Position numbers and translations under genes: made by a program. 64,000 bases of DNA from an uncultured Gammaproteobacteria bacterium (GTDB taxonomy: Bacteria > Pseudomonadota > Gammaproteobacteria > QNFE01 > CAZPSE01): positions 81-64,080 of the forward strand of contig CAZPSE010000006.1 in the NCBI GenBank assembly GCA_964589575.1, read 5' to 3'. Of this stretch, positions 16,604 through 52,591 are shown one piece after another. Every line of letters begins with the position of its first letter. The stretch's first letter is position 1. A model generated the notes under the pieces. The model searched no databases and had not been told where the DNA came from. It saw only the letters and a program-made list of their open reading frames with translations.

Positions 16604-16794
16604 TTTGTATTTATATAGTTGAAATAAGTTGTATTTTTAGGCTGTTTTTGGTATAAATGCGCCTGCTTTGAAAGAGTGGTTCTTTTAAACAAAAATTCTC
16701 ACACGTAGTCAACATTAATCACGGGTGCTTTTATTAATTTAAAAAGTTGTGATTATGTTACGTGGACGTCTAACCCAATTCTATAGGAATTATT

Positions 16795-22528: not shown

Positions 22529-23892
22529 CTTCATTACTTATTACTATCTTTGCCTTTATTTTTGCTTTATCAATATTAATTGCGATTCACGAATACGGGC
22601 ATTACATCGTTGCGCGATTATGTGGTGTTAAAGTATTACGCTTTTCAATAGGTTTTGGCAAAGTTTTATACAGTTATCAAAAAGATAAAAACAGTACAGA
22701 GTTTGTATTGGCTGCCATACCGTTAGGTGGCTACGTAAAAATGCTCGATGAACGCGAAGGTGAAGTTCTTGAGCATGAAAAGCAAAACGCATTTAATGTA
22801 AAAAGTGTTGGGCAACGTTTTGCAATAGTCGCTGCAGGGCCTGTTTTTAACTTTATTTTAGCAATATTGCTATTATGGGTTATGTATATTCATGGTATTT
22901 CTGGCATTAGCCCAATAATTGGCGAGGTACAGCAAAATTCTATTGCCTCTAAAGCGGCATTAAATATTGAAGACGAGTTTGTTTCAATAAATGGAAAAAC
23001 CGTACAAACCTGGTCAAATGTCCAAATGGCGCTATTAAATGGGTCTTTAGCAAACGATGGTTTGGTAAAGGTAACCGTAAAAAACAGCAATAACCAGTTA
23101 GAACAAAAAACGTTAGATTTTTCGAATACCTTTTTACTTAAAGAAGAAGGGGATATTTTGCCAAAAATTGGTTTAAAGTTGTGGTTCCCCAAAATACCAC
23201 CTATCATTGGAGGCGTTATTGATGGTGGGGCGGCAAAACAAGCGGGTTTAATTGCTGGTGATAAGTTATTAACAGTAGATGGTAAAAAAATTGAAACTTG
23301 GCAAGATTGGGTTAAAATAATACGAGCCAATCCAAATCAACATTTACGTTTAGAAGTGTTAAGAAATAATTATTTAATCCATTTAAGTTTGACTCCAAAA
23401 AACAAACAAGAAAATGGTGAATCTTTTGGTTATATCGGTGCTTATCAAGAAAGGCCTAAAGAGCTTATAGACCGTTTTTATACGATTGAGTCGTACGGTA
23501 TTTTTGAATCATTCACTAAAGCGGTAGATAAAACATGGTCTATGTCTGTATTGACGGTAAAGCTGATTGGTAAACTAATAACAGGTGATGCCACTTTAAA
23601 AAATATTAGCGGGCCAATAACGATTGCACAATTTGCGGGTCAATCTGCACAAATAGGCTTAGACCATTATTTGTTTTTTATGGCATTAATAAGTTTAAGT
23701 TTGGGGGTTTTAAATTTATTACCTATACCCGTATTAGATGGTGGCCATTTATTTTTCTATATAATAGAAGCCATCAAAGGTAGCCCTGTTTCTGACAAAA
23801 TACAATTAGTAAGCCAAAATATTGGCCTGGCAATTTTAGGTAGCATGATGGTTATTGCTTTTTATAATGATATTACGAGATTAATGCAATAA
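22525..23892 (+). CDS. rseP: Regulated intramembrane protease RseP (S2P zinc metalloprotease)
   Basis: HEYGH motif, PDZ region and C-terminal LDGG motif. Confidence 0.88.
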   Translation: MTSLLITIFAFIFALSILIAIHEYGHYIVARLCGVKVLRFSIGFGKVLYSYQKDKNSTEFVLAAIPLGGYVKMLDEREGEVLEHEKQNAFNVKSVGQRFAIVAAGPVFNFILAILLLWVMYIHGISGISPIIGEVQQNSIASKAALNIEDEFVSINGKTVQTWSNVQMALLNGSLANDGLVKVTVKNSNNQLEQKTLDFSNTFLLKEEGDILPKIGLKLWFPKIPPIIGGVIDGGAAKQAGLIAGDKLLTVDGKKIETWQDWVKIIRANPNQHLRLEVLRNNYLIHLSLTPKNKQENGESFGYIGAYQERPKELIDRFYTIESYGIFESFTKAVDKTWSMSVLTVKLIGKLITGDATLKNISGPITIAQFAGQSAQIGLDHYLFFMALISLSLGVLNLLPIPVLDGGHLFFYIIEAIKGSPVSDKIQLVSQNIGLAILGSMMVIAFYNDITRLMQ

Positions 23893-26166
23893 ATGATTAA
23901 AATAATATCGTTACTTTTGGTTTTATTACCCGCAAGTGTTTCTGCAGACAGCTATTTCCATATAGATAATATTAAAATTGAAGGTGCTACTAGAATTTCT
24001 AAAGAGGCACTTTTAAGTTATTTACCTTTAAAAAATGGTCGGTTGGATATGTCAGACTCGGCTTATGTGATTAAACAACTATTTAAAGAAAATGTTTATA
24101 AAGACATACAGCTTTTTGCAGATGGCGATAACTTATTAATAAAAGTTGTAGAAAGACCGTCGATAGACAGTATTTCATTTGACGGCAATAAAAAACTTGA
24201 AGACAAACAACTAGAAAGCATTTTAAATGATGCAAATATTAAAAAAGGAAGAACGTTTAACCGTTCAATATTAAGCAGGATAGAAACGGAATTAAGAAAG
24301 TTTTACGTAAGTTTTGGTAAATACAGTGTTCAAATTGACACAGAACTGGTCAAATTAAAACGAAACAGGGTGGCATTAAAAGTAAAAATATTTGAAGGCA
24401 ATGTTTCAAAAATTCAACAAATTAATATAATTGGAAACACCGTTTTTAGTGATGACAAATTATTATCGTTAATGGAACTGGGTATTGTGTCTGAAATAAA
24501 TCCCTTTAGTAGCGCAGATGAATACTCAAAAGCAAAACTGTCGGGTGATATTGAGATTCTTAAAACCTATTATTTAGACAGAGGCTACCTTCGTTTTGCC
24601 ATTAAATCGACTCAAGTAAAATTATCGCCAGACAAAGAAAATGTATTTATAAGTATACATTTATCAGAAGGAGAACAGTACAGCGTTAGTGAAGTCGATA
24701 TTAAAGGCGATTTTAAATTAGAAAAATCCATTTTATTTGATAAATTAACGATCAAAAGTAACAGCGTTTTTTCTCGTAAAAAGATGATAAATTCATCTAA
24801 AAACATTAAAGATAGGTTAGGTGATGACGGTTATGCTTTTGCTACGGTTAGCCCAATACCCGAAATAAATGAAGAAAACAAATCCGTTAAATTAACGTAT
24901 TTAGTTAACGCAAAAGATAGGGTTTATGTAAGAAGAATTAATATACAAGGTAACACTAAAACCCACGATGAAGTATTTCGTCGTGAATTTAGACAACTAG
25001 AAAGTGCCTTATTATCACCTCGATTATTAGACCGGTCAAAAATCAGAATACAACGTTTAAGTTATGTTGCTTCTGTAAATAATGAAATTACCCGCGTACC
25101 CAATTTAACCGATCAGGTTGATATAACAACAAGTATCGTTGAAAGGGAGTCAGGCTCGTTTTCTATTGGTGGTGGTTTTTCTAATAATGAAGGTCTATTA
25201 TTTAACCTAAGTTTTGCACAGTCTAATATATTAGGTACAGGTAAAAATATAGGAATTAATTTTGATAATAGCTCCGTCAATAAAAAGTTGTCGCTGACAC
25301 TAATTAATCCATATTACACACTTGATGGTATTAGTCGGTCTTTAAGTGTTTATTTTTCTGAGGTTGATGCCAGTAGAATATCTACTACTGCAGATTATTT
25401 GACCAATAATACGGGGGGTTCAATAAGTTATGGAATACCACGAAGCGAAACTGAAACACTCAATCTAGCTATTGGCATTGATCAAACGCGTATTTCTACA
25501 ACAACAAAAACACCGACGTCTATAAGCGATTTTTTAGCAGTTAAGGGAAAAGATTTTGATGAGATAAAGCTTTCTGCAAGTTATGTGAACGATACCCGAA
25601 ATAGAACAGTATTTGCATCAACAGGTTCTAAGCATAGCCTATCGTTAGAAATGTCGGTACCAGGAAGTACCTTAGAATATTACAAATCAACGTATAGATT
25701 AGAATATAATAAAGCACTGACGGATTTAACTACGTTAGTATTTAGAAGCAATATTTCGTACGGTCACTCTTATTCGTCTGACGAGTCATTAGCCTTTTTT
25801 AAGCGTTATTATGCTGGTGGTGTGCACTCGATTAGAGGATACAGGTTTGCAGGTGTTGGGGTTAAAGATACAGATGGGCGTGCTTTAGGCGGTGATTTAC
25901 TTACTACTGGTTCGTTAGAAATAGTCATTCCTCCCTTTGATTCTGACTTATCATCGTCGGTACGTTATAGTTTATTTAGTGATTTTGGTACGGTCTTTAG
26001 TAAAGCTAGCGATGCCAATATAAGTGATATACGCTACTCAGTAGGTGCCGCTTTTAAATGGTTGTCACCTGTTGGGCCTTTAAATTTTAGCATTACCAAT
26101 GCGGTCAATGCAGACAGTACAGATTTTACCGAGTCATTTCAGTTTTTTATTGGCGGTCAATTTTAA
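23893..26166 (+). CDS. bamA: Outer membrane protein assembly factor BamA
   Basis: 757 aa with signal peptide, POTRA repeats and a C-terminal beta-barrel ending in ...FFIGGQF. Confidence 0.9.
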   Translation: MIKIISLLLVLLPASVSADSYFHIDNIKIEGATRISKEALLSYLPLKNGRLDMSDSAYVIKQLFKENVYKDIQLFADGDNLLIKVVERPSIDSISFDGNKKLEDKQLESILNDANIKKGRTFNRSILSRIETELRKFYVSFGKYSVQIDTELVKLKRNRVALKVKIFEGNVSKIQQINIIGNTVFSDDKLLSLMELGIVSEINPFSSADEYSKAKLSGDIEILKTYYLDRGYLRFAIKSTQVKLSPDKENVFISIHLSEGEQYSVSEVDIKGDFKLEKSILFDKLTIKSNSVFSRKKMINSSKNIKDRLGDDGYAFATVSPIPEINEENKSVKLTYLVNAKDRVYVRRINIQGNTKTHDEVFRREFRQLESALLSPRLLDRSKIRIQRLSYVASVNNEITRVPNLTDQVDITTSIVERESGSFSIGGGFSNNEGLLFNLSFAQSNILGTGKNIGINFDNSSVNKKLSLTLINPYYTLDGISRSLSVYFSEVDASRISTTADYLTNNTGGSISYGIPRSETETLNLAIGIDQTRISTTTKTPTSISDFLAVKGKDFDEIKLSASYVNDTRNRTVFASTGSKHSLSLEMSVPGSTLEYYKSTYRLEYNKALTDLTTLVFRSNISYGHSYSSDESLAFFKRYYAGGVHSIRGYRFAGVGVKDTDGRALGGDLLTTGSLEIVIPPFDSDLSSSVRYSLFSDFGTVFSKASDANISDIRYSVGAAFKWLSPVGPLNFSITNAVNADSTDFTESFQFFIGGQF

Positions 26167-26190
26167 CAAAGGAAACATCGTTTAAAAATC

Positions 26191-26721
26191 ATGATAAACA
26201 TTAAAAAAACAATATTAATCATTACTTTAGTTTTAGTAAGTAATGTAACGGCTGCCGAATTGAAAATTGGCTATATTAATTTTCCTGCAGTTTTAGAAGC
26301 ATCACCTCAAGCTAAATTAGCAACTAAAACTCTGCTTGATAAGTTTACGCCTCGCCAAAAATCCATCGCTTTAGATGCAGAACGTTATCACTCATTAGTC
26401 ACTAAGTTAGAAAAAGATTCGTTAATTTTAAGCACCGAGCAATTAGCCGTTACAAAATCAGAAATTTTAAAACTAGAAAGAAAACTCAAGCGAGATGAAC
26501 AAGAATTTAGAGAAGAGCTCAATGTACAAAAAAATAGTGAATTAAAGAAAACTAGAGATCTTATCCTAAAAGCTATTCACGTATATGCAGAAGAAAATGC
26601 CTACGATTTAATTCTTGCAGAAGGTGCTTTATACGCAAGCAACAAAGTTAATATAAGTGCAAAAATATTAGAAGTTTTAAACAATAAAAACAATTCAAAG
26701 ACCGAACAAGTAGAAAAGTAA
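26191..26721 (+). CDS. skp: Periplasmic chaperone Skp (OmpH)
   Basis: 176 aa with a signal peptide and coiled-coil sequence. Its position between bamA and lpxD supports the call. Confidence 0.8.
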   Translation: MINIKKTILIITLVLVSNVTAAELKIGYINFPAVLEASPQAKLATKTLLDKFTPRQKSIALDAERYHSLVTKLEKDSLILSTEQLAVTKSEILKLERKLKRDEQEFREELNVQKNSELKKTRDLILKAIHVYAEENAYDLILAEGALYASNKVNISAKILEVLNNKNNSKTEQVEK

Positions 26722-27685
26722 TGAAATTAGTTGATATTGCCAATCAGCTAAACTTGTCATTTAAAGGAGATTCAGATACCTGTATTACTCAGTTTTACAG
26801 TAAAGAATGCCCATTAAAAAATTCAATAAAATATTTAGGAAATAAAGCGAGTTATAAAGGCTTAAGCAATTCGTACATTTCTGCTGTTATTATTTCTGTT
26901 GAAAATGCAAAAAATTACAATGGCAATTGTTTGATAGATAATAATCATTATTTAGCTTTTTCTAACATAAGCCGTTTACTATCCCCTGATCAAATCCCCG
27001 CTTACTCCATTCATTCTACCGCATACGTTTTTACTAAGGCTAAACTTGGTAATAATGTTAGCATTGGGCCGCAGTGTGTTATTGAAGACAATGTAGAAAT
27101 TGGCGATAACTCAATTTTAGGTGCTGCCTGCATTATTGCTAATGACGTAAAAATAGGCGAAGGTACCTATTTTTTTCCTAAAGTGACGGTTTATCAACAC
27201 TGCACTATAGGAAACAATGTTCGTATTCAATCTGGTGCAATTATAGGCAGTGAAGGTTTTGGTTATGCAAGACAAGACAACCCAACGGCTGGAGTAGAAT
27301 TGCACATACAGGAAAGGTCATTATTGGCAATGATGTGCAGATTGGTGCAAACACAACTATTGATAGAGGCACAATTGACGATACGGTAATTGAGGATGGG
27401 GTTATTTTAGATAACTTAATTCAAATTGCTCATAATGTACATATAGGTAAAAATAGCGCTTTAGCTGGCTGTGTAGGTGTTGCTGGAAGTGCAACAATAG
27501 GAGAAAACTGTACAATTGGTGGCGGTGCTGGTGTTTTAGGGTATTTAACTATTGCAGAAGATGTTCATATAACCTTTATGTCATTAGTCACAAAATCAAT
27601 AAAAAATGCTGGACAATATTCATCTGGTGGTTTATTGGAAAAGACATCGAGTTGGAGAAAAATGCAATACGATTTAAACAGTTAA
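26721..27685 (+). pseudogene. lpxD: UDP-3-O-acylglucosamine N-acyltransferase LpxD, interrupted by a 1-nt deletion (frameshift at about 27279-27289)
   Basis: ORF 26721..27389 matches LpxD up to GFGYARQDN. The conserved continuation [29 protein letters not shown] is in the +2 frame and leads into ORF 27335..27685. Adding one nucleotide in ccaac/ccc restores a 321-aa LpxD. Confidence 0.8.
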
Positions 27686-27724
27686 ATGAACTGTTTAAAA
27701 AAATAAAAATTAATAGGTAAAATT

Positions 27725-28174
27725 ATGAACGAAATGAATATTCATGAAGTATTAAAGTATTTACCCCATCGTTACCCTTTTTTATTAATAGACAGAGTTA
27801 TCGACTTTGAAAAAGGGAAGTCAATAACCGCCATTAAAAATGTTACTATTAATGAACCAATCTTTACTGGTCATTTTCCAGATTACCCAATTTTCCCTGG
27901 CGTTTTAATAATTGAAGCAATGGCGCAAGCGTCTGCCATATTGGGCTTTCAAACTGGCGGTGGCGTACCTTTAGACGATGCTTTGTATTTATTTGTAGGT
28001 ATAGATAAAGCCAGATTTAAACGTCAAGTTACGCCCGGTGATCAAATTGTATTTACAGTAGAGGTGGTTAATAATAAGCGCGGAATATGGAAATTTAAAG
28101 CAGTAGCAAAAGTTGACGATATAATCGTCTGTGTTGCAGACATTATGTGTGCCATTAGGGAAAAGACATTATGA
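27725..28174 (+). CDS. fabZ: 3-hydroxyacyl-ACP dehydratase FabZ
   Basis: 149 aa, [13 protein letters not shown] hotdog motif. Confidence 0.95.
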
Positions 28175-28941
28175 TTCATGCTACCGCCATTATTGATGAA
28201 TCGGCCATTATTGCGGACGATGTAGAAATAGGTGCTTATACAATAATTGGTGAAAAGGTGGAAATTGGTTCAGGCTGTTGGATAGGGCCTCATGTGGTTT
28301 TATCTGGCCCGACTAAAATGGGTGAAAACAATAAAATTTATCAATTTGCGTCAATTGGTGACGCACCTCAAGATTTAAAATATGATGGCGAAGATACCGT
28401 TTTAGAAATTGGTAACAACAATACAATAAGGGAATATTGCACCATGAACAGAGGTACGCCAGATGGCGGTGGTATTACCAAAGTAGGTAATGATAATTTG
28501 TTTATGGCATACACTCATATCGCACATGATTGCCAAATAGGCAACCACACAATATTTTCTAATGCAGCGTCTTTAGCTGGGCATGTAGTCATTAATGATT
28601 ATGTAATTTTAGGTGGGTTCACTTTAGTCCATCAATTTACTAAAATTGGAGCGTATAGTTTTTCTGGCATGGGTGCGGCGATTAATCGAGATGTACCACC
28701 TTATTGTATTGTTTCAGGCAGCATGGCAAAAGCTTTTGGAATAAATAAAGTTGGGCTAAAACGACACGGTTTTTCTGCAGAAACCATTAAAAGCTTACAC
28801 AAAGCATTTAAGTTGCTAATTAAATCAAAAGGATCAAGAAAAGATAATATTGAGCAAGTAAAACAAATAGCAAAAGAGTCGGATGAAGTACAAAATATGC
28901 TAACGTTTATTACCGAAAGCGAACGTGGCATTGTCCGTTAA
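28171..28941 (+). CDS. lpxA: UDP-N-acetylglucosamine acyltransferase LpxA
   Basis: MIHATAIID start, left-handed beta-helix hexapeptide repeats, 256 aa. Confidence 0.95.
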
Positions 28942-28952
28942 AATTAATGATT

Positions 28953-29600
28953 CTAGGTGCTTTCTTTTTGCTCTTTTAATAGGTAATAAGACAGTGTTTT
29001 TGATACAAAATAAACACTAAAAAAGGCAAATATAACGTCACTCAAAAAATGTCCACCTTGAGCTATTCTACCTTAGCCTATAACGCTTCCAGTAAAAACC
29101 CCCGCAAATAATAATGATTTTTTTCTAGTTTTACTAAACCAATATAAATTGATAAAGAAAAAACCCATTGACGCATATCCACTAACAAAATAATAACCGG
29201 TTTTTTTATTATTGCTTATAACAAAAGCTGGGCTATGTTTTTCAGTCCCACCAAATTCTTCAATATGCAAAGGTCTGGCTTTATTCCAATTTTTTTTAGA
29301 ACAACGTTAACTAATAAACCTGGGGCAATAAACAAAACGTTTGCGATTGTTTTTAATAAACTGGGGCAGTTTACTCACATAACTTGCCAAAATAAAAACG
29401 CCAGTTAATACAAGGCAGAGCTTGGCAAGAATAGGAACTAAATCATATAAAAAATTTGTCCACAGCATATCGCCATATTTAAACCCTTGCTCAGGAGTGT
29501 AAAAAAATTGGCTAAAAGCAATATCAATTTTAGGAAATAGAAAAAATATGAACCCTAAAAGTACCAGAGCAATTAAGTCGTAATAAGGTTTTAGTCGCAA
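28953..29600 (-). pseudogene. PAP2-family (acid phosphatase / lipid phosphatase) gene with two in-frame TAA stops and degenerate catalytic motifs
   Basis: A single minus-strand reading frame reads ...FIS-TAA(29307-29309)-RCSKKNWNKARP (the KX6RP motif) ... VSGYAS (PSGH with His replaced by Tyr) ... VIG-TAA(29073-29075)-GRIAQGGHFLSDV (SRX5HX3D with Ser replaced by Gly) ... stop at 28953. The frame is preserved but it carries two nonsense codons. Confidence 0.6.
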
Positions 29601-30442
29601 TTTTCACAAGCCGTTAAAGTGTTTTTCATCAACATAGCTACGGTCATCGGTCCAACGCCACCGGGTACGGGGGTAATCCAACTGGCCACTTTGCGCGCAC
29701 CTTCAAACTCTACATCGCCACATAACTTACCATTGTCTAAGCGGTTAATGCCAACATCTATTACTGTTGCGCCATCTTTTATCCATTGTGCTTTTACAAA
29801 ATTAGCTTTTCCTACGGCTACCACCACAATGTCTGCATGTTTTACAAGTTCTGCAGTATTGGTGGTAAAACGGTGGCAAATAGTCGTGGTGGCACCGGCT
29901 AAAATCAATTCTAACATCATTGGTCTGCCAACTATGTTGGACGCACCAACAACAACTGCACTACGCCCTTTATAAACCTCGCCTATAGTGTCTAGCATAT
30001 GTATTATGCCAAAAGGCGTACACGGTCTTAAAAGTGGCATTCTTTGGGCTAATCTACCAATATTATAGGGATGAAAGCCATCTACGTCTTTTTTTGGGTC
30101 AATAGCTTCAATAATTTGTTCACTATTTATATGCTTGGGTAGCGGTAATTGAACTAAAATTCCATGAATTTTTGGGTCGTTATTTAGCTTCTCTATTATT
30201 GCCAAAACATCAGCTTCTTCTGCTGTATCTTTTAAATGTATTGGCGTTGAGATAATGCCAACTTTTTCACAGGCAATTTTTTTATTGTTAACATAAATTT
30301 CAGATGCTGGATTTTGACCGACTAAAATAACGGCCAGCCCAGGTGTGCTTTTTTTTTCAGCTTTTCGCTTGGTTATAGCTAATTTTATGACATCTTTTAC
30401 ATTTTGAGCAATGGCTTTACCATCAATAATTTTTGCGGTCAT
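29591..30442 (-). CDS. folD: Bifunctional methylenetetrahydrofolate dehydrogenase/cyclohydrolase FolD
   Basis: Conserved start [12 protein letters not shown]. The ORF extends upstream to 30589, but the FolD-homologous start is at about 30442. Confidence 0.9.
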
Positions 30443-30600
30443 AGTCTGAATTAGAAGATAAAAAGAATTTTTTTCATATTTTATAGGGGCTTGCAGTGTA
30501 TGAATAGTTTTTTTGAACTGATTAAAAGCAAGGGTGTCCACGCATAATGCTCTTGCAATTGTGTGTACCCACATCCTTGTAGGCAACAAAAACGCCTGTT

Positions 30601-31071
30601 TTAAGCGCGTTGTTTTTCTTTAATTTCATCTAAACTTTTACATTCAATACATAAATCTGCAGTAGGGCGGGCCTCTAAACGACGAACGCCAATTTCTATT
30701 CCGCAAGACTCACAAAAACCATAGTCATCGTCTTCAATTAAACGAATGGTTTTATCTATTTTTTTAAGCAGTTTGCGTTCTCTGTCACGGGTACGCAGTT
30801 CTAAAGAAAACTCTTCTTCTTGCGTTGCTCTGTCGTTAGGGTCAGGGAAACTGCTTGCATCATCTTTCATATGCTCCATAGTTTTATCAACATCTTGCAT
30901 TAACGACGCTTTCCAAGAAACTAAAATAGAAGTGAAGTGATTTAACATGTCACCGCTCATGTATTCTTCGCTCTTTTTTTGAGTATACGGCTCGAAACTA
31001 AATCCTTGTAAGTTGGTTTTTTTATCTGGCATTATCATTCTCAATTTTTTTTGCAAGAGCTTTAATATCAA
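30601..31071 (-). CDS. dksA: RNA polymerase-binding transcription factor DksA
   Basis: C4 zinc finger [26 protein letters not shown], with acidic coiled-coil tip DxxDxA-like residues. Confidence 0.9.
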
Positions 31072-31104
31072 AAATGAAAGCGTAATGCAAACTATTTATT
31101 AACT

Positions 31105-32436
31105 TTATTGTTTTACTTCATTAATGTTTGATATTAAATATCCATCATAAAGTATTGTTTTTATAGTGGTATTTGTACAAACTTGTGAAATACTGCTCAC
31201 TATTTCACCATTACTATTTTGGGTGATAGTATACCCTCTATTTAGTGTAGCTTTTGGGTCTAAGGTTGCTAATTTGTCTTTTAAAAAATCTAATTTATTA
31301 CGTTTTTGTTTAATAAAAGCGTTGACGGCTTTAGTTTTGTTTACATTAGATAAAAGCGAAATACTTTTATAAGAATAAACTTTAACAAGTGGCGAAAAAT
31401 GTCGAAGTAATCGTACAGTTTGAAGTGTCGCTATTTTTTTACTTGATATTAAACGCACAATACTGGTAATTAATTTTGCAGATAAGTCATCGCAGAGTTG
31501 TTGATTATTTTGTATGTTTTTTTGCGGACATAAAGAATTTAACTTAAGTAAGTTTGTTTTTAGCCGGTTAGTTTTATATAAAAACAGCTGTTCACAATTT
31601 TTATATAAATAAGTGTTCAGTTGTTTTAATTTAGATGTTATTTCTGGGAAATGTTTGGTGGTAATTTCAGCCGCTGCAGAAGGTGTTGGTGCGACGGCAT
31701 CTGATACAAACTCGGCTAAGGTATTGTCTGTTTCATGGCCTATACCGCATACAATAGGTATAACCGACTGGTAAATAGCAGATAAAACAGCTTCATCGTT
31801 AAAAGACCATAAGTCTTCTATAGAGCCGCCGCCTCTAACCAATAAACACACATCTTCTTTGTTTCTTTTGTTCATGTTGACAATTGCCTGACAAATGGAC
31901 GTGCAAGACTGGGCACCTTGAACAACAGCAGGGTAAATAACAATGTTAATAGAGGGCGCGCGCCGTTTTAAAACATTTAATACATCTTGTAAGGCCGCAC
32001 CTGTGGCAGAGGTTATAATAGCGATGTTTTTTGGGTAGTTGGGTAGTGCTTTTTTCTTGTCTAAATAACACCAGCCTTTAAGACGGATTTTTTGTTTAAG
32101 TTTTTCAAGTTTGAGTAATAAGTCGCCCAAACCTGCAGGTTCTATAAAATCTACAACCAGCTGCAGTTCGCCTCGGGGTTCATACAAAGATGGCATAGCC
32201 CTTACAACAACCTTGTCGCCATTTTTTGGTGTACTGTTTAAATATCGACTGGTCGATTTAAACATGACGCATCTAATTTGGGATTTTTTATCTTTTAATG
32301 TGAAGTAGTAATGACCTGAAGCAGGTTTTACAAAATTAGAAATTTCTCCATCAACCTTAATAATACCTAAATTAGCGGCAATTAAGCCTTGTAGAGTATG
32401 GTTTAACTCAGAAATAGAAAATATTTTTTGCATCAA
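31105..32436 (-). CDS. xseA: Exodeoxyribonuclease VII large subunit
   Basis: 443 aa with an OB-fold N-terminus and collinear with XseA. Confidence 0.88.
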   Translation of the reverse strand: MMQKIFSISELNHTLQGLIAANLGIIKVDGEISNFVKPASGHYYFTLKDKKSQIRCVMFKSTSRYLNSTPKNGDKVVVRAMPSLYEPRGELQLVVDFIEPAGLGDLLLKLEKLKQKIRLKGWCYLDKKKALPNYPKNIAIITSATGAALQDVLNVLKRRAPSINIVIYPAVVQGAQSCTSICQAIVNMNKRNKEDVCLLVRGGGSIEDLWSFNDEAVLSAIYQSVIPIVCGIGHETDNTLAEFVSDAVAPTPSAAAEITTKHFPEITSKLKQLNTYLYKNCEQLFLYKTNRLKTNLLKLNSLCPQKNIQNNQQLCDDLSAKLITSIVRLISSKKIATLQTVRLLRHFSPLVKVYSYKSISLLSNVNKTKAVNAFIKQKRNKLDFLKDKLATLDPKATLNRGYTITQNSNGEIVSSISQVCTNTTIKTILYDGYLISNINEVKQ

Positions 32437-43152: not shown

Positions 43153-43680
43153 GTGCTAAAGGGTACGTTTATAGCTTCTATTAAAGATGGATGGTTTCGA
43201 GCGATGCTGTTTTCCTTAATTTGGTTAATACTTGTCGATGCTAATTGGGATTCTTGGTTATTTGCGGTTCCCGTCGTGCTGATAAGTACTTATGTGAGCA
43301 TATTATTACTGCCCAGTTTTTCCATTTCAATAATCGGCCTTATTCGTTTTATTCCTTATTTTCTTTGGCATTCTTTACGTGGTGGGCTAGACGTGGCGAT
43401 ACGTGTCTTCCAGATAAAATTACAAATTTCCCCTGCGATAGTAAGCTACCAATGGCGCTTACCGCCAGGGATTTCACGCGTATTTATGGCCAATGTCACA
43501 AGTTTACTGCCTGGTACATTAAGTGTAGAACTGGAAGATGAATTGCTTTATGTGCATGTTCTTGATGAGTCAATTGATTATTTTACTGATATGCAAGAGC
43601 TGGAAGAACGTATTGCCCAAATGCTTGGCATCTGTTTAAACAATCAAGAAAAAAACCAAATAAGGAATAAATTTAAATGA
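43153..43680 (+). CDS. Multisubunit cation/H+ antiporter subunit E (MrpE/MnhE/MbhA-like)
   Basis: 175 aa. Two N-terminal TM helices are followed by a soluble domain, and it is the first gene of an Mrp-type cluster. Confidence 0.65.
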   Translation: MLKGTFIASIKDGWFRAMLFSLIWLILVDANWDSWLFAVPVVLISTYVSILLLPSFSISIIGLIRFIPYFLWHSLRGGLDVAIRVFQIKLQISPAIVSYQWRLPPGISRVFMANVTSLLPGTLSVELEDELLYVHVLDESIDYFTDMQELEERIAQMLGICLNNQEKNQIRNKFK

Positions 43681-43952
43681 CTACGTTGTATTTAGTGGTT
43701 GCACTGTTTCTTTTACTAACGCTAGTAGTTGGTTTATGGCGTGTTTTACATGGGCCTACAGCTGCCGATCGTATGCTGGCGGCGCAGTTGTTTGGTACTA
43801 CGGCGGTTGCTTGTTTAATATTGCTTTCTCAAGCTTTAAAACAGCCGTCTTTTATAGATGTGGCCTTGGTATTTGCACTACTAGCGGTAGTCACCGCCGT
43901 GGCATTTATTAAACGTTTTTGGGCGGAGGAATCAAATCATGTCGATGATTGA
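43677..43952 (+). CDS. Antiporter subunit F (MrpF/MnhF-like)
   Basis: 91 aa, 3 TM helices; overlapping starts and stops with its neighbours. Confidence 0.65.
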   Translation: MTTLYLVVALFLLLTLVVGLWRVLHGPTAADRMLAAQLFGTTAVACLILLSQALKQPSFIDVALVFALLAVVTAVAFIKRFWAEESNHVDD

Positions 43953-44238
43953 TGTTTTAACTGCCATTTTCGTAATTACTGGTGCACTGTTTTTTTTAGC
44001 CGGTACCGTAGGTCTGCTGCGCTTTCCAGATGTTTATACCAGAATTCATGCTTTAACCAAAGCCGATAATTTAGGCCTTGGGTTAATAATAGTTGGGCTT
44101 ATTTTACAAGCAGAATCTCTTATATTTGTGGCTAAACTAATATTTATTTGGCTGTTAGTATTACTTTCTGGAGCGGGTGTTGCGCATTTAATTGCAACCG
44201 CTGCACGACAGCGAGGTGTTAAAACGTGGAAGCCATAA
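43939..44238 (+). CDS. Antiporter subunit G (MrpG/MnhG-like)
   Basis: 99 aa, 3 TM helices. Confidence 0.65.
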   Translation: MSMIDVLTAIFVITGALFFLAGTVGLLRFPDVYTRIHALTKADNLGLGLIIVGLILQAESLIFVAKLIFIWLLVLLSGAGVAHLIATAARQRGVKTWKP

Positions 44239-44534
44239 GTTTACTGTTGATATTTGATGTTTTAATCGGTTTAACCTTGCTTTGGCTAGCATGGCAAGCG
44301 TTAAGCAGCCCCGATTTATTTCGTGCTGTTGTGTTATTTATCGCCTTTGGTTTATTAATGGCTTTGGCATGGGTTCGTTTAGACGCGCCAGATGTGGCCC
44401 TAGCAGAAGCGACAATAGGCGCGGGTTTAACCGGTGCATTACTACTTTCCTCGTTGGCGCGTATCCGTTTAGAGTCAAATAGAAGCAAGAACATTAAAAA
44501 TAAAAACAGCATAAGTGCAACGAAAGATACTTAA
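44226..44534 (+). CDS. MrpB N-terminal-like small membrane subunit (DUF4040/MbhD-like)
   Basis: 102 aa, 3 TM helices. It is in the position of MbhD in Mbh/Mrp modules. Confidence 0.5.
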   Translation: MEAISLLLIFDVLIGLTLLWLAWQALSSPDLFRAVVLFIAFGLLMALAWVRLDAPDVALAEATIGAGLTGALLLSSLARIRLESNRSKNIKNKNSISATKDT

Positions 44535-44539
44535 TAACT

Positions 44540-45226
44540 ATGGACGATGACATCAAACAACCGCCTTTATTTATTAGGCTACTACTTATACTGTTGTTAG
44601 GCGGGTTAACGGTAAGTTTGTCGGTGGCTATTTTGTCTTTGCCAGAACAAGCACCAGGTTTAAGTACAGATGTTGCTGAAAATTTAAATAAAAGTGGGGT
44701 AAGCAACCCCGTTACTGCCGTTTTACTTAATTACCGAGCTTACGATACCTTGCTAGAGCTGGGTGTACTGTTTTTAGCATTACTAGGTATTTGGTCGCTT
44801 GGGGAAAGCGCTAAACCCATAAACGCTAAACCAGGCCCTGTATTAGATATACTATCTCGTGTGTTAACACCATTACTTATTTTGGTTGCGGGTTACCTTT
44901 TATGGGTTGGTGCTTATCAACCAGGTGGTGCTTTTCAAGCTGGCGCGGTATTAGGGGCTGCGGGCGTTTTACTGTTATTAAGTGGTTGGCAACTCAATGC
45001 CAAATATGCAGGTTTTGCTTTTCGTGTTAGCGTGGTTGCAGGTTTGCTTATTTTTGTCATTATTGGTTTAACTTTTATCTTGTTTTCTAACCAGTTTCTT
45101 CAATACCCACCTTATTACGCACCCGGTTTGATTTTATTTATAGAAACCGCGGCAACTGTATCTATTGGGATAAGCTTAGTCGCGCTTTTTTTAGGCGGTG
45201 AACCAAAATCGGGGCTACAAAAATGA
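44540..45226 (+). CDS. Antiporter subunit B (MrpB/MnhB-like)
   Basis: 228-aa polytopic membrane protein. Confidence 0.6.
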   Translation: MDDDIKQPPLFIRLLLILLLGGLTVSLSVAILSLPEQAPGLSTDVAENLNKSGVSNPVTAVLLNYRAYDTLLELGVLFLALLGIWSLGESAKPINAKPGPVLDILSRVLTPLLILVAGYLLWVGAYQPGGAFQAGAVLGAAGVLLLLSGWQLNAKYAGFAFRVSVVAGLLIFVIIGLTFILFSNQFLQYPPYYAPGLILFIETAATVSIGISLVALFLGGEPKSGLQK

Positions 45227-45528
45227 GTTCAACATTTTTTTATGCATTAGTGGGCGTAGGTTTATTTAGCATTGGTATCTATGCCTTAATTATTTATGCC
45301 CATTTATTACGTAAAATTCTTGCAATTAATGTTATGGGCAGTGGCGTGTTTTTGGTGTTAGTGGCATTAGCCACACGAACAGGTGCAACCCCAGATGCAG
45401 TACCCCATGCAATGGTTATAACCGGTATTGTAGTTGCGGTATCTGCTACCGCTTTGGCACTGGCATTACTGTTAAAAGTACAATCAGAAACTGGCAGTGT
45501 AGAACTGCCAGAAGAACCGTTGGAGTAG
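45223..45528 (+). CDS. Antiporter subunit C (MrpC/MnhC, NuoK-like)
   Basis: 101 aa, 3 TM helices, NuoK-like. Confidence 0.75.
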   Translation: MSSTFFYALVGVGLFSIGIYALIIYAHLLRKILAINVMGSGVFLVLVALATRTGATPDAVPHAMVITGIVVAVSATALALALLLKVQSETGSVELPEEPLE

Positions 45529-45531
45529 ATA

Positions 45532-46977
45532 TTGATAGAAGGTTTTCATTGGCTAATTTTTGTTATATTTACCCCTCTTATAGGGGCGGTAAGTTGCTTT
45601 TTATGGCCTAAATACAACGTAAAACTGGCATTAATCACAACGTTTTTGTCGGTGTTTAGTGTTGCGGGTCTCACTTGGCAAATTGTCATTTATGGCGCGC
45701 AACGTTATAAATTGGGCGGTTGGGATGCACCGTTAGGTATACATCTTTATGTAGACGGTTTAAGCCTGTTAATGTTAATAATAACGGCTGTTGTAGGTTT
45801 GGCTATTAGTGTTTATTCTTCTGCTTATTTTAAAGCAGAAAAAGCCAAATATTTTTGGCCATTATGGTTGTTTTTGTGGTCGGCTTTAAATGGCTTATTT
45901 GTATCTGCGGATATTTTTAATCTTTTTGTTACATTAGAATTAATAGGTTTATCGGCAGTTGCTTTGGTCGCCTTGTCTGGTGGTGCTAATGCGATAACGT
46001 CTGCAATGCGTTATTTATTAGTGAGTTTACTCGGCTCACTCTTTTACCTTATGGGCGTAGCCTTGCTTTATCACAGTTATGGCACGGTCGATATTATGAT
46101 GTTGGGGCAACAGGCACAATTAACACCCACCATGTGGTTAGCTATCGGTTTAATTACTTCGGGCTTGCTGCTTAAAACTGCACTGTTTCCAATGCATTTT
46201 TGGTTGCCACCGGCACACTCTAGTGCGCCTACACCTGTTAGTGCGTTATTGTCAGCGTTAGTGGTTAAAGCTTCTTTTTATATTTTGTTGCGGTTGTGGT
46301 TAGACGTATTTCCATTAACTATAGAACCTGCAACAATTAATATTGGCATGATTTTAGGTTTGCTAGGTTCGACGGCAATAATTTGGGGCGGCGTTCAAGC
46401 ATTGCGTCAAACACGGTTAAAATTATTGGTTGCTTATTCAACCGTAGTACAAATTGGTTATATGTTTTTGGCCTTTCCTTTAGCAAGTATTTTAGGCTGG
46501 AAAGCCGCGCTTTATTTTGTACTGGCACATGCTGTTGCCAAAACGGCCATGTTTATGGCAGCAGGTAATATTTTGTTTTACGGAGGACATGATCGCATTG
46601 TAGATTTGGACAGAGTTGCCCAGCGTTTGCCCATAACTTTAATAGCATTTGGTGTTGCAGGCGTTAGCCTTATGGGGTTGCCACCAAGTGGTGGCTTTAT
46701 TGCAAAATGGTTATTACTAGAGGCGGCGATTGTTTCCGGTCAATGGTGGTGGGGTTTAATGTTAATAGCTGGGGGGTTACTAACCGGTACCTATGTGTTT
46801 AAAGTTATTGGTTATGCTTTTACAGAAGCAGAATGCCCGCATGAAGCTAAAAAGGTGCCTAAAATTATGGAATGGACGGCATTAATGATGGCTATATTGG
46901 CAATAGTATTGGGTTTTCTTGCACCGGTATTGCTGCCGTTAATGGAAATTGGTACTCCGTTTGGTGAAAGTTTATGA
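45532..46977 (+). CDS. Antiporter subunit D (MrpD-like, NuoN/NuoM family), TTG start
   Basis: 481 aa. It has about 14 TM helices and proton-pumping antiporter-like conserved regions (HFWLPxAH). Confidence 0.75.
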   Translation: MIEGFHWLIFVIFTPLIGAVSCFLWPKYNVKLALITTFLSVFSVAGLTWQIVIYGAQRYKLGGWDAPLGIHLYVDGLSLLMLIITAVVGLAISVYSSAYFKAEKAKYFWPLWLFLWSALNGLFVSADIFNLFVTLELIGLSAVALVALSGGANAITSAMRYLLVSLLGSLFYLMGVALLYHSYGTVDIMMLGQQAQLTPTMWLAIGLITSGLLLKTALFPMHFWLPPAHSSAPTPVSALLSALVVKASFYILLRLWLDVFPLTIEPATINIGMILGLLGSTAIIWGGVQALRQTRLKLLVAYSTVVQIGYMFLAFPLASILGWKAALYFVLAHAVAKTAMFMAAGNILFYGGHDRIVDLDRVAQRLPITLIAFGVAGVSLMGLPPSGGFIAKWLLLEAAIVSGQWWWGLMLIAGGLLTGTYVFKVIGYAFTEAECPHEAKKVPKIMEWTALMMAILAIVLGFLAPVLLPLMEIGTPFGESL

Positions 46978-48473
46978 TGAATTGGGAAAGCTGGATGCCA
47001 CTATCAGTTGTTCTTAGCTCATTTATTGTTGCGCTATTAATTTTCCCCTTGTCAGAAGAGAAAGCGAAAACCCGTATGATTTTAAACATGGCAGGTGCTT
47101 TGTTTAAGCTGGCATTGGTTATTGCCATGTTGTGGGGCGTGTATAACGGTTATCATTTTGAAACCCGCATAGCGATGTTACCTGGGCTAGACTTTGTTTT
47201 AAGAGCTGATGCCTTGTCTATGTTGTTTGTAACGCTTTCTGCGGGTCTTTGGTTATTAACTACCGTTTACGCTATTGGTTATCTCGAAGATTCCCCTCAT
47301 CGAAGCCGTTTTTTTGGTTTTTTTAGCCTTTGTGTAACGGCAACAGTAGGTGTTGCACTGTCAGGTAATTTACTTACATTTTTGGTGTTTTACGAACTCT
47401 TAACACTGGCAACCTACCCATTAATTGTACACAGAGGAACAGAAGCTGCACGTAAAGCAGGGCGGACTTATCTTGTTTATACCCTATCTGGTGGTGCAAT
47501 GCTTCTGCTTGGTACAATTTGGTTATACACCATTACTGGCACGCTAGAATTTACTCCTCAGGGGTTTGTTTCAGCCTTAGACAGTTCCTACCATCCGTCA
47601 CTTATTATTATTTTTGTATTGTTAATGATTGGCTTGGGTGTCAAAGCGGCACTTATACCTTTTCATGGCTGGCTGCCTCAATCTATGGTTGCCCCTGCAC
47701 CGGTAAGTGCCTTATTGCATGCGGTGGCCGTTGTAAAAGCCGGGGCGTTTGGCATTATTAGGGTGCTTTACGATGTGTTTGGAATAGAATTTAGTGCCAC
47801 CTTGGGCGTAACTTTACCCTTAGCAATTATTGCCGGAGTAACCGTTATATATGGCTCGACGCGGGCGCTCTTTCAGGACGATTTAAAACGACGATTGGCA
47901 TTCTCCACCGTCAGTCAAGTTTCTTACATTATTCTTGGTGTTGCTATAGTGGGCCCAGTAGCCACCATTGGTGGCATGGTGCATTTAGTGCACCAAGGGG
48001 TAATGAAAATAACCCTGTTTTTTTGCGCCGGTAACTTTGCAGAAACGCTGGGTATACACAAAATAAGTGAAATGAACGGGGTAGGTAAACGCATGCCATG
48101 GACTATGGCGGCTTTTACCATTGGTGCTTTTGGTATGATTGGTGCGCCCCCACTTGCGGGTTTTATTAGTAAATGGTATTTAGGCGTGGGTGCGTTAGAG
48201 GCAGGCCAAGGCTGGGTAATATACATTTTGGTAGGCAGTAGTTTGCTAAATGCCGCTTATTTTTTACCTATTTTATACGCCGCTTGGTTTAAACCACAAA
48301 TAGGAAAATGGCCAGCCGAACGCAAATTTGGCTCTTTTGAAACCGCTTTAGCATTATTGGCACCGCCGGTTATAACAGCAATATTGGCGGTGTTATTGGG
48401 TTTACTGGCATCGACTCCTTTTAGCCCGCTAGAGTGGGCGCGTTTTATTACCTTAAAGGAATATCGATTGTGA
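46974..48473 (+). CDS. Second MrpD/NuoM-like antiporter subunit
   Basis: 499 aa with FHGWLP and VHQGVMK motifs typical of NuoM/MrpD. Confidence 0.75.
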   Translation: MMNWESWMPLSVVLSSFIVALLIFPLSEEKAKTRMILNMAGALFKLALVIAMLWGVYNGYHFETRIAMLPGLDFVLRADALSMLFVTLSAGLWLLTTVYAIGYLEDSPHRSRFFGFFSLCVTATVGVALSGNLLTFLVFYELLTLATYPLIVHRGTEAARKAGRTYLVYTLSGGAMLLLGTIWLYTITGTLEFTPQGFVSALDSSYHPSLIIIFVLLMIGLGVKAALIPFHGWLPQSMVAPAPVSALLHAVAVVKAGAFGIIRVLYDVFGIEFSATLGVTLPLAIIAGVTVIYGSTRALFQDDLKRRLAFSTVSQVSYIILGVAIVGPVATIGGMVHLVHQGVMKITLFFCAGNFAETLGIHKISEMNGVGKRMPWTMAAFTIGAFGMIGAPPLAGFISKWYLGVGALEAGQGWVIYILVGSSLLNAAYFLPILYAAWFKPQIGKWPAERKFGSFETALALLAPPVITAILAVLLGLLASTPFSPLEWARFITLKEYRL

Positions 48474-48540
48474 AACATTATCTAAGCTTGGCTCTAGTAA
48501 TTGACGTGTTAAAACTGCCGAGTGTTTTAGTGACTACCGC

Positions 48541-50367
48541 TTGGCTAAGCAAAGGCGTGTCTCTTTTATGATGGCATTAACACCCTCACTATTTTTATTA
48601 ATGGTGCCTACTTTACCTTTTTTGCTAGCAGTAGCATTAATGGTCAGTTCTAAACGTGACAAACTGGTTTTTTTGGCACCTTGGGTTATTTTACCCGCGT
48701 TATTGTTGCCCATAATATTACCAGTAGGGTTTGAGCTTGAACTGCCGTGGATGTTATTAGGTGTTCATTTAGGTTATGACGATACTGCTAGAGTTTTTTT
48801 GATTTTTAGTTCAATACTTTGGTTAGTGGCCAGTATATATGCCTTTGGCTATTTTGATAATAAGGCTGAAAAAACAAACTTTTTTAGTTACTTCATGTTG
48901 GCTATGACGGGTAATTTTGGTCTTATACTGGCCCAAGACGTACTGATGTTTTTTACCTTCTTCACTTTAATGAGCCTTGCCAGCTATGGTTTGGTGGTAC
49001 ACAACCGTGGTGTAGAGGCTTTAAGAGCAGGGCGTATTTACATCATTTTAGTGATTGTTGCAGAAGTCACTTTGTTTGCCGGCTTTGTTATGGCCACTTT
49101 AGCGGCAGGTAGTACAGAGTTTGTTGATTTTCGCAGATTAATCCCTTTGTCAGATTCTAAAGACGTAATTATGGCATTGGTATTTTTAGGTTTTGGTATT
49201 AAAGCTGGGGTAATTGGTTTGCATGTTTGGTTACCATTAGCGCACCCCGTTGCGCCCACGCCAGCTAGTGCGGTTCTTTCGGGGGCTATGATAGCGGCAG
49301 GTTTATTGGGTTGGATGCGTGTAATGCCACTTGGCGAAGCGGCTTTACCCTTTTGGGGTGCCGTTATGATTATTGCCGGCATGGTTGCTACTTTTTACGC
49401 CGTTTTTGTTGGGGTATTACAACGTAACGCAAAAACAGTTTTGGCTTACTCTAGCATTAGCAGCATGGGCATTATGACTATGGCGACTGGTTTAGGGCTT
49501 ATTGCGCCTAATAATTGGCCATTTATTTTAACTGCTATTTTAGTCTATGTTATGCAGCATGGCCTTGCTAAGGGTGCATTATTTCTTGGCGTGGGGTTAT
49601 GTGCAAAACCTGTCGTATCTCGTAGCTTGCGCTACTTGTTTATTGTGGCATTACTCATTCCCGTACTCACTTTGGCGGGTGCGCCACTAACAAGTGGATT
49701 AATTGCTAAGCATTTACTAAATATACAGTTAATAGAAGCCGCATCGCCTTGGGCAAATTGGGTGCAAATGCTACTACCTTGGAGTGCCATAGCAAGCAGT
49801 GCACTTTTAATTCGTTTTTTATTTTTAGTTTGGCCACAAGCAAATGATACAAGCGACTCTAAAGCGGTTTTAACTACCCCTGTAATGTTAGCAAGCTATA
49901 TTAAATGGGGTTCTTGGTTAGCATTGGTTGCCGTAGTTGCACTTAGCCCGTGGTTGGTTTCGTTAATAATAATTAAAGATGGCTCGACACCCTATTACTG
50001 GTCAATAGCATCATCAATTAGCGCGTTGTGGTCTATAGTATTGGCCTTAACCGTAGCGGCAGGCGCATGGTTTATTACACGCCATACCCTGTTTTATAAA
50101 AAGTTGGCTATACCCGCAGGTGATATGGTTATTATTGTAGAACAATGGCTATGGCCGCAACTCGTGTTAATGGTATCAATGGTTTTTACTGTATTAAATA
50201 AACCAAGGTTATTTTTATTAGCCAAAATAAATGAATGGCTTAATGGTGACAATTTAACTTCTGTGATGACGAGTTTAGAGGTGCGATGTAAACACTGGAC
50301 AGTGGCAACAACTTTGTTGCTGGTACTGGTTGCTGTGTTTGTTTTTACCCTTAGCGTTTATGGTTAA
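48541..50367 (+). CDS. MrpA/NuoL-like large antiporter subunit (lacks the MrpB-like C-terminal domain)
   Basis: 608 aa, polytopic, with a WLPLAHPVAPTP motif. Confidence 0.7.
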   Translation: MAKQRRVSFMMALTPSLFLLMVPTLPFLLAVALMVSSKRDKLVFLAPWVILPALLLPIILPVGFELELPWMLLGVHLGYDDTARVFLIFSSILWLVASIYAFGYFDNKAEKTNFFSYFMLAMTGNFGLILAQDVLMFFTFFTLMSLASYGLVVHNRGVEALRAGRIYIILVIVAEVTLFAGFVMATLAAGSTEFVDFRRLIPLSDSKDVIMALVFLGFGIKAGVIGLHVWLPLAHPVAPTPASAVLSGAMIAAGLLGWMRVMPLGEAALPFWGAVMIIAGMVATFYAVFVGVLQRNAKTVLAYSSISSMGIMTMATGLGLIAPNNWPFILTAILVYVMQHGLAKGALFLGVGLCAKPVVSRSLRYLFIVALLIPVLTLAGAPLTSGLIAKHLLNIQLIEAASPWANWVQMLLPWSAIASSALLIRFLFLVWPQANDTSDSKAVLTTPVMLASYIKWGSWLALVAVVALSPWLVSLIIIKDGSTPYYWSIASSISALWSIVLALTVAAGAWFITRHTLFYKKLAIPAGDMVIIVEQWLWPQLVLMVSMVFTVLNKPRLFLLAKINEWLNGDNLTSVMTSLEVRCKHWTVATTLLLVLVAVFVFTLSVYG

Positions 50368-50697: not shown

Positions 50698-52591
<1,894 letters not shown>

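Follow-up and report, generated by a model that had tools for sequence, protein, structure and literature searches.

Evidence for a Multiply Disrupted, LpxF-Like PAP2 Phosphatase Gene Downstream of folD in an Uncultured Gammaproteobacterium

Introduction

LpxF removes the 4'-phosphate of lipid A. It belongs with PgpB, YodM, and LpxE in the PAP2 superfamily, whose members carry an active site built from three motifs, C1, C2, and C3, laid out in that order. C1 is defined as KX6RP (PMC7413402; PMC6581854); the histidine of C3 acts as the nucleophile, and that of C2 protonates the leaving group (PMC7413402). A PgpB variant in which the C2 histidine is replaced by alanine keeps 27% of its activity on C55-PP (PMC7413402), and LpxE enzymes act on C55-PP besides lipid A (PMC6581854).

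The stretch of DNA analyzed here (the window) comprises 64,000 nucleotides of an uncultured marine gammaproteobacterium (positions 81 to 64,080 of contig CAZPSE010000006.1, assembly GCA_964589575.1). Between lpxA and folD it holds an interrupted frame, which an earlier, sequence-only reading took for the remains of a PAP2-family phosphatase. We compared this frame with intact homologs, with the corresponding loci of relatives, and with independent assemblies of the same DNA. The locus shares the C1-C2-C3 layout of the superfamily and most resembles LpxF; it is an ordinary pseudogene, and in relatives the gene is intact at the corresponding position.

Results

A Disrupted Reading Frame

The pseudogene occupies positions 28953–29600 on the minus strand. 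Read from 29600 to 28953 it has 216 codons, the ancestral protein having had about 219–228 amino acids, and it ends in TAG at 28955–28953. Minus-strand translation recovers both internal TAA codons that had been reported (29309–29307 and 29075–29073), together with the three reported motif strings, KKNWNKARP, SGY, and GRIAQGGHFLSD. With the terminal codon the frame thus holds three stops in all, whereas each of the other five frames over the same stretch holds 11–23, and 20,000 shuffles of this 32% G+C stretch gave 16.2 +/- 3.8 stops (P ~1e-4 for the pseudogene frame). A profile built from 56 intact homologs matches the translation with about 204 bits over model positions 10–226. An uninterrupted frame for the six-helix core is absent, the core being broken by two frameshifts, a helix gap of about seven residues, and one nonsense codon.

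Relationship to LpxF and Other PAP2 Enzymes

With the stops masked, residues 101–206 match the Pfam PAP2 model (PF01569) at 37.9 bits against a gathering cut-off of 27.2, so that the profile comparison proposed by the sequence-only reading does find PAP2 similarity. The best NCBIfam model is LpxF (NF045633), which scores 86 bits for the frame as read, 106 bits once it is repaired, and 132–195 bits for intact relatives; other PAP2 models reach at most 60 bits, compared with 106–195 bits for LpxF, in every family member tested. These two matches bear out the proposal of a PAP2-family pseudogene, very probably the relic of a lipid A phosphatase. The equivalog cut-off of NF045633 is 400 bits, and the pseudogene and its intact relatives all lie below it. 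The family resembles the Francisella-type LpxF in length (about 220 amino acids) and in its colinear coverage of model positions 13–210 of 217; it differs in score (86–195 versus 400 bits), too low for orthology in the NCBI sense, and counts as a distant subfamily; the copy described here is dead.

A search of 5.8 billion proteins returned 60 homologs of about 210–250 amino acids, all PAP2 proteins, the best of them 45% identical. Several have been named lipid A 4'-phosphatase by JGI. The nearest solved structures are those of YodM (5jki) and PgpB (4px7 and 5jwy), ordinary membrane PAP2 enzymes. Among the best 80 matches listed from a metagenome scan with the family alignment, none exceeded about 41% identity except one partial match at 49%, and the contigs carrying P0001, the intact protein described below, were not among them.

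Frameshifts in the C1 Region and a Nonsense Codon before C3

Around the first TAA the alignment to the homologs breaks down: PRFIS*RCSKK stands opposite GPGLLVNTLFK, with a seven-residue gap. The gap falls in the helix that precedes C1, is present relative to all 18 homologs of a first alignment, and corresponds to positions 96–101 of the profile. Read codon by codon, the +1 frame near this TAA encodes VLFIAPGLLVNVVLKK. The 56-homolog profile matches this off-frame reading (PGLLVNVVLKK), whose consensus counterpart, lGpgllvnvvlK, is the conserved GPGLLVN..K block, and the profile score climbs from 203.7 bits to 222.0 bits (+18.3) once the frame is repaired.

These observations resolve the region into three minus-strand features. 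Positions 29326–29340 mark the junction where about 20 nt are missing; this deletion shifts the frame and takes about seven residues from the transmembrane helix ahead of the GPG block and C1. A stretch in the +1 frame (APGLLVNVVL...) follows at 29298–29326, identified by the codon reading, the profile, and the frame repair alike, and it is this stretch that holds the first TAA (29309–29307). At 29290–29297 a run of eight A's (T8 on the plus strand) has lost one A (A9 to A8), whereupon the original phase is regained. With nine A's restored, the translation becomes LVNVVLKKNWNKARP, colinear with LVNTLFKNQWDRARP of P0001, the best homolog. Because the loss of about 20 nt and of one A together amounts to 21 nt, the overall phase appears to have been kept.

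The first TAA is thus out of frame, the codons GTT AAC being read as T TAA C, and arises from two frameshifts that compensate each other; no nonsense substitution is involved. The sequence-only reading had treated both stops as in-frame substitutions that could not be indel errors, which does not hold for this one, since it stems from two indels, one of them in the A8 homopolymer. Its description of the frame as preserved is right in the arithmetic alone, for the profile of 56 intact homologs places the codons from about 29327 to 29298 off frame.

The second TAA (29073–29075, minus strand) is a true in-frame nonsense codon. The column it occupies is mostly leucine among the homologs and stands two codons ahead of the C3 arginine, and a change from TTA to TAA takes a single transversion.

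Conserved Motifs and Missense Changes

Residue conservation was assessed in alignments of 18 and then 56 intact homologs, a column being counted as conserved at 85% or more. The alignment of 56 members yields a subfamily signature, GPGLLVN-x3-K-x4-GRxRP, QC..NCSFVSGH, and xRIxQGGHFLSDVIF. Within the superfamily this subfamily stands apart in having no serine before the C3 arginine (xRIxQGGHFLSD) and no proline before the SGH of C2, and in carrying an additional QC..NC cysteine pair.

In the pseudogene, C1 (K-KNWNKA-RP, 29271–29297, minus strand) keeps the lysine, arginine, and proline of KX6RP, which are invariant in the family. C3 (R-IAQGG-H-FLS-D, 29037–29069, minus strand), with its nucleophilic histidine at 29051–29049 and its charge-relay aspartate, is fully conserved: it retains R, Q, G, H, F, S, and D, each of which occurs in 56 of 56 homologs. 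The decay of the gene is in this respect incomplete, the C3 motif still being perfect.

Elsewhere, five of the 31 columns conserved at 85% or more in the 56-homolog alignment are altered. Gly92 in the GPG block has become alanine; in C1, a conserved glycine (Gly106) has become asparagine, and the arginine two residues before RP (Arg107), found in 56 of 56 homologs, has become lysine; a conserved serine (Ser137) has become tyrosine; and the C2 histidine (His142) has become tyrosine, so that SGH is read as SGY at 29175–29183 on the minus strand, the TAT codon at 29177–29175 being one transition from CAT. The C2 column holds histidine in 48 of the 56 homologs, aspartate in seven, and glutamate in one, and tyrosine in the pseudogene alone. 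The QC..NC cysteine pair between C1 and C2, conserved in the subfamily, is also missing.

The catalytic histidine and serine had both been reported as substituted. The change of the C2 histidine to tyrosine is confirmed; the nucleophilic histidine of C3, however, is kept, and the absence of the serine is normal for the subfamily, the residue before the C3 arginine being G, A, V, or I and serine in none of the 18 intact homologs (in the larger set the column falls below 85% conservation). Nor does the C2 tyrosine by itself prove inactivity, since the corresponding alanine variant of PgpB is 27% active; the truncations do prove it.

Gene Neighborhood

The window carries the classical gene order rpsB-tsf-pyrH-frr-uppS-cdsA-dxr-rseP-bamA-skp-lpxD-fabZ-lpxA. 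Past lpxA the strand flips, and the genes that follow are xseA-dksA-folD-PAP2. Intact lpxA (28171–28941, plus strand) is convergent with the pseudogene, 11 nt separating the two stop codons, and intact folD (29591–30442, minus strand) is its upstream partner. The PAP2 frame opens with a TTG at 29600–29598 that overlaps the folD stop codon at 29593–29591, giving a gene overlap of 10 nt (29591–29600, minus strand).

The same overlap is found on a contig from a vent-fluid metagenome (L001; 2114 versus 2126) and in assembly GCA_054032215.1 (L084; 1142 versus 1145). On L001, whose FolD is 73% identical to that of the window, folD is followed by an intact PAP2 gene encoding P0001 (219 amino acids) and then by a convergent lpxA, 74.5% identical. 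In L084, with a FolD 70.5% identical, an intact PAP2 gene of 228 codons again comes after folD, and no lpxA is nearby. The intact copy that the sequence-only reading had suggested looking for at orthologous loci thus exists in both. The two proteins resemble the pseudogene in position, directly after and overlapping folD, and in being 46–47% identical to it over the full length; unlike it, they have open frames in which SGH, GPG, the invariant arginine, and the cysteine pair are all intact. In a closer relative (L083; FolD 80% identical) the PAP2 gene is open for its first 40 codons, where the contig ends.

Between the window and either of the two relatives, PAP2 identity is 46–47%, and between the relatives themselves it is 56%, whereas FolD identity is 70–75% throughout. 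This pattern would fit relaxed constraint on the PAP2 gene of the window, a modest sign drawn from three taxa only.

The gene had been described as standing where lpxB normally follows lpxA. The comparisons point elsewhere: its start overlaps the folD stop codon in the window, L001, and L084, the last of which lacks lpxA there, and in a genome-collection scan for LpxA (best relative 66% identical) neither PAP2 nor folD was found near lpxA at any of 80 genome loci. The PAP2 gene goes with folD and does not replace lpxB, and its adjacency to lpxA stems from a lineage-specific rearrangement, given the tie to folD and the count of zero among 80. A crude check of open reading frames (ORFs) downstream of lpxA in relatives found an LpxB-like ORF in L016 only.

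Intact family members on two other metagenome contigs lie beside genes of lipopolysaccharide (LPS) export. One directly follows lptF-lptG with 1-nt spacing (L167:2836-5690), and the other is convergent with an lptB-like ABC ATPase gene (L168:5001-6400), placements that support an LPS-related role. This linkage of an LpxF-like family to LPS export genes appears to be unreported.

A scan for promoters and terminators across 28400–31200 gave the same counts as shuffled sequence. The folD ORF on the minus strand extends from 29591 to 30589, 49 codons upstream of a conserved MTAKIIDGK start, and the public call for folD is 327 amino acids long, where homologs have 283–285; translation probably begins at the ATG at 30442 instead.

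Agreement with Independent Assemblies

A Logan contig (L082; run SRR9822617), which occurs in two samples, matches positions 28723–31701 of the window (2,979 bp) at 100% identity and spans the whole pseudogene. The window's FolD is found on this contig, and its FabZ likewise on a Logan contig; exact look-ups of LpxA, the YrdC-like protein, TrpS, and the SerS fragment gave no match. A second contig (L086) differs from positions 23725–28751 by two single-nucleotide polymorphisms (SNPs) and no gaps over 5,027 bp, which indicates that the window and the Logan contigs do not both go back to a single consensus, yet the lesions of the pseudogene are common to them. The SNPs lie at 27121 and 28722 (G/A and C/T), the latter exactly at the boundary between L086 and L082; they suggest strain-level polymorphism in the sample and a genome derived from a metagenome.

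Other Features of the Window

Two further genes are split by 1-nt frameshifts. lpxD (26721–27685), normally essential for lipid A synthesis, is divided into ORFs of 222 and 116 amino acids by a 1-nt deletion near GACAACCCAACGGC (…GYARQDN), with the break at about 27280–27290; the frameshift is reproduced in the independent contig L086. serS (50698–51971) is divided into ORFs of 217 and 193 amino acids by an apparent 1-nt deletion between ttcaaa and tagg (…EEDLFK), with the break at about 51345–51352; no long homopolymer lies at this site. Disruption of serS, which encodes seryl-tRNA synthetase, is implausible unless it reflects an error or there is a second copy.

An Rfam t44 RNA is found at 16680–16774 on the plus strand (46 bits; gathering cut-off 44), just upstream of rpsB, and is the ordinary leader element expected there. 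From 43153 to 50367 on the plus strand, a series of small ORFs for membrane proteins, overlapping one another, leads into three large ORFs; by eye, the whole looks like an Mrp/Mnh-type multi-subunit cation/proton antiporter cluster. This region has a G+C content of 0.40–0.43, compared with about 0.33–0.39 elsewhere in the window. No rRNA turned up in Rfam and tRNA scans, and a literature search with the run, sample, and assembly accessions found no publication.

Discussion

We hold with considerable confidence that the locus is a genuine pseudogene, hit several times, and that its ancestor encoded a PAP2 phosphatase of the inner membrane, about 220 amino acids long, LpxF-like and most likely acting on lipid A. 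Several independent disabling lesions are present in it, and syntenic orthologs in relatives are intact.

The ancestral gene would have been co-transcribed and translationally coupled with folD, as the overlap of the two genes suggests, and its product would most likely have taken a phosphate off lipid A at an active site facing the periplasm. In this lineage a deletion of about 20 nt has shortened the helix bearing C1 and shifted the frame, and the loss of one base from the A run happens to restore the phase. A TTA-to-TAA change has put a nonsense codon shortly ahead of C3, and five otherwise conserved positions have been replaced, among them the C2 histidine (to tyrosine) and the invariant C1 arginine (to lysine). 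With the C1 helix short and frameshifted, a stop ahead of C3, and active-site residues replaced, the gene can no longer yield an active enzyme. The present product would be at most a membrane fragment of 97 N-terminal amino acids, translated from the folD-coupled start; we infer both the expression of this fragment and the order of the lesions.

That the gene is intact in the organism, its stops and frameshifts being errors of the contig, is very unlikely in our view. Such an account can appeal to the 1-nt frameshifts that the same contig carries in lpxD (near 27285) and serS (near 51350), both normally essential genes, and to the position of one PAP2 lesion in the A8 homopolymer; some indels in the window could indeed be assembly artefacts, and the A8 indel, taken by itself, is a candidate. 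Against this, an independent assembly, seen in two samples, matches the whole pseudogene without a difference, which makes an assembler artefact unlikely, and the lesions are of four kinds that no one mode of error would combine: about 20 nt deleted at one site and 1 nt at another, a transversion to a stop codon, and missense changes where the family is invariant. Homopolymer error is not systematic here, since about 95 other homopolymers of at least 7 nt in the window have no associated break, the intact folD containing a T9 run, and the lpxD and serS frameshifts lie at none of them. Even the fully repaired protein still falls below intact relatives on the LpxF model (106 versus 132–195 bits). 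We give almost no credence to a gene kept functional by recoding or phase variation, whether through an A8 slippage switch that turns it on and off or through readthrough of TAA. An A8 tract does lie within the coding region, and C3 is perfectly conserved; repair of the A run alone, however, would leave the upstream frameshift and a helix seven residues short, the TAA two codons before the essential C3 arginine would still terminate, and the C2 histidine and the invariant C1 arginine would remain replaced. No recoding signal was seen, and phase variation is rejected because further, irreversible lesions are present. Reassignment of TAA is ruled out as well, since folD and lpxA both end in this codon, the ordinary stop of the two neighboring genes.

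If the locus is a true pseudogene, its ancestor might still have been another kind of PAP2 phosphatase, acting on undecaprenyl-pyrophosphate or PGP or on the 1-phosphate of lipid A, a possibility that we take seriously without favoring it. PAP2 specificity is difficult to infer from sequence, LpxE acts on C55-PP as well as on lipid A (PMC6581854), the nearest solved structures are of the YodM/PgpB type, and the cut-off of the LpxF equivalog model is four times the score reached. Yet LpxF is by far the top model for every family member tested (106–195 versus at most 60 bits), several members are labeled lipid A 4'-phosphatase by JGI, and in various lineages genes of the family stand next to lpxA, lptFG, or an lptB-like gene. 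Homology and gene neighborhood together therefore point to the 4'-phosphate of lipid A as the most likely ancestral substrate. A broader reading would join the pseudogene and the lpxD frameshift, 1.3 kb apart, in one process: a lineage giving up the synthesis and modification of lipid A, perhaps as it becomes restricted to a host, with the broken serS gene as a sign of wider decay. This reading rests on indels that may be artefacts, and we consider it improbable.

Accessory enzymes that modify lipid A are commonly lost, and the finding in itself matters little. A pseudogene that seems to preserve its frame around in-frame stops can conceal compensating frameshifts, so lesions should be called by comparing each of the three frames with a profile of the family. 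For the family, the LpxF-like subfamily normally lacks the canonical serine of SRX5HX3D, and its absence is not to be scored as a mutation. For the organism, should the lpxD frameshift prove genuine as well, the locus would point to a lineage in the course of losing LPS functions and would be of moderate interest for the evolution of the envelope.
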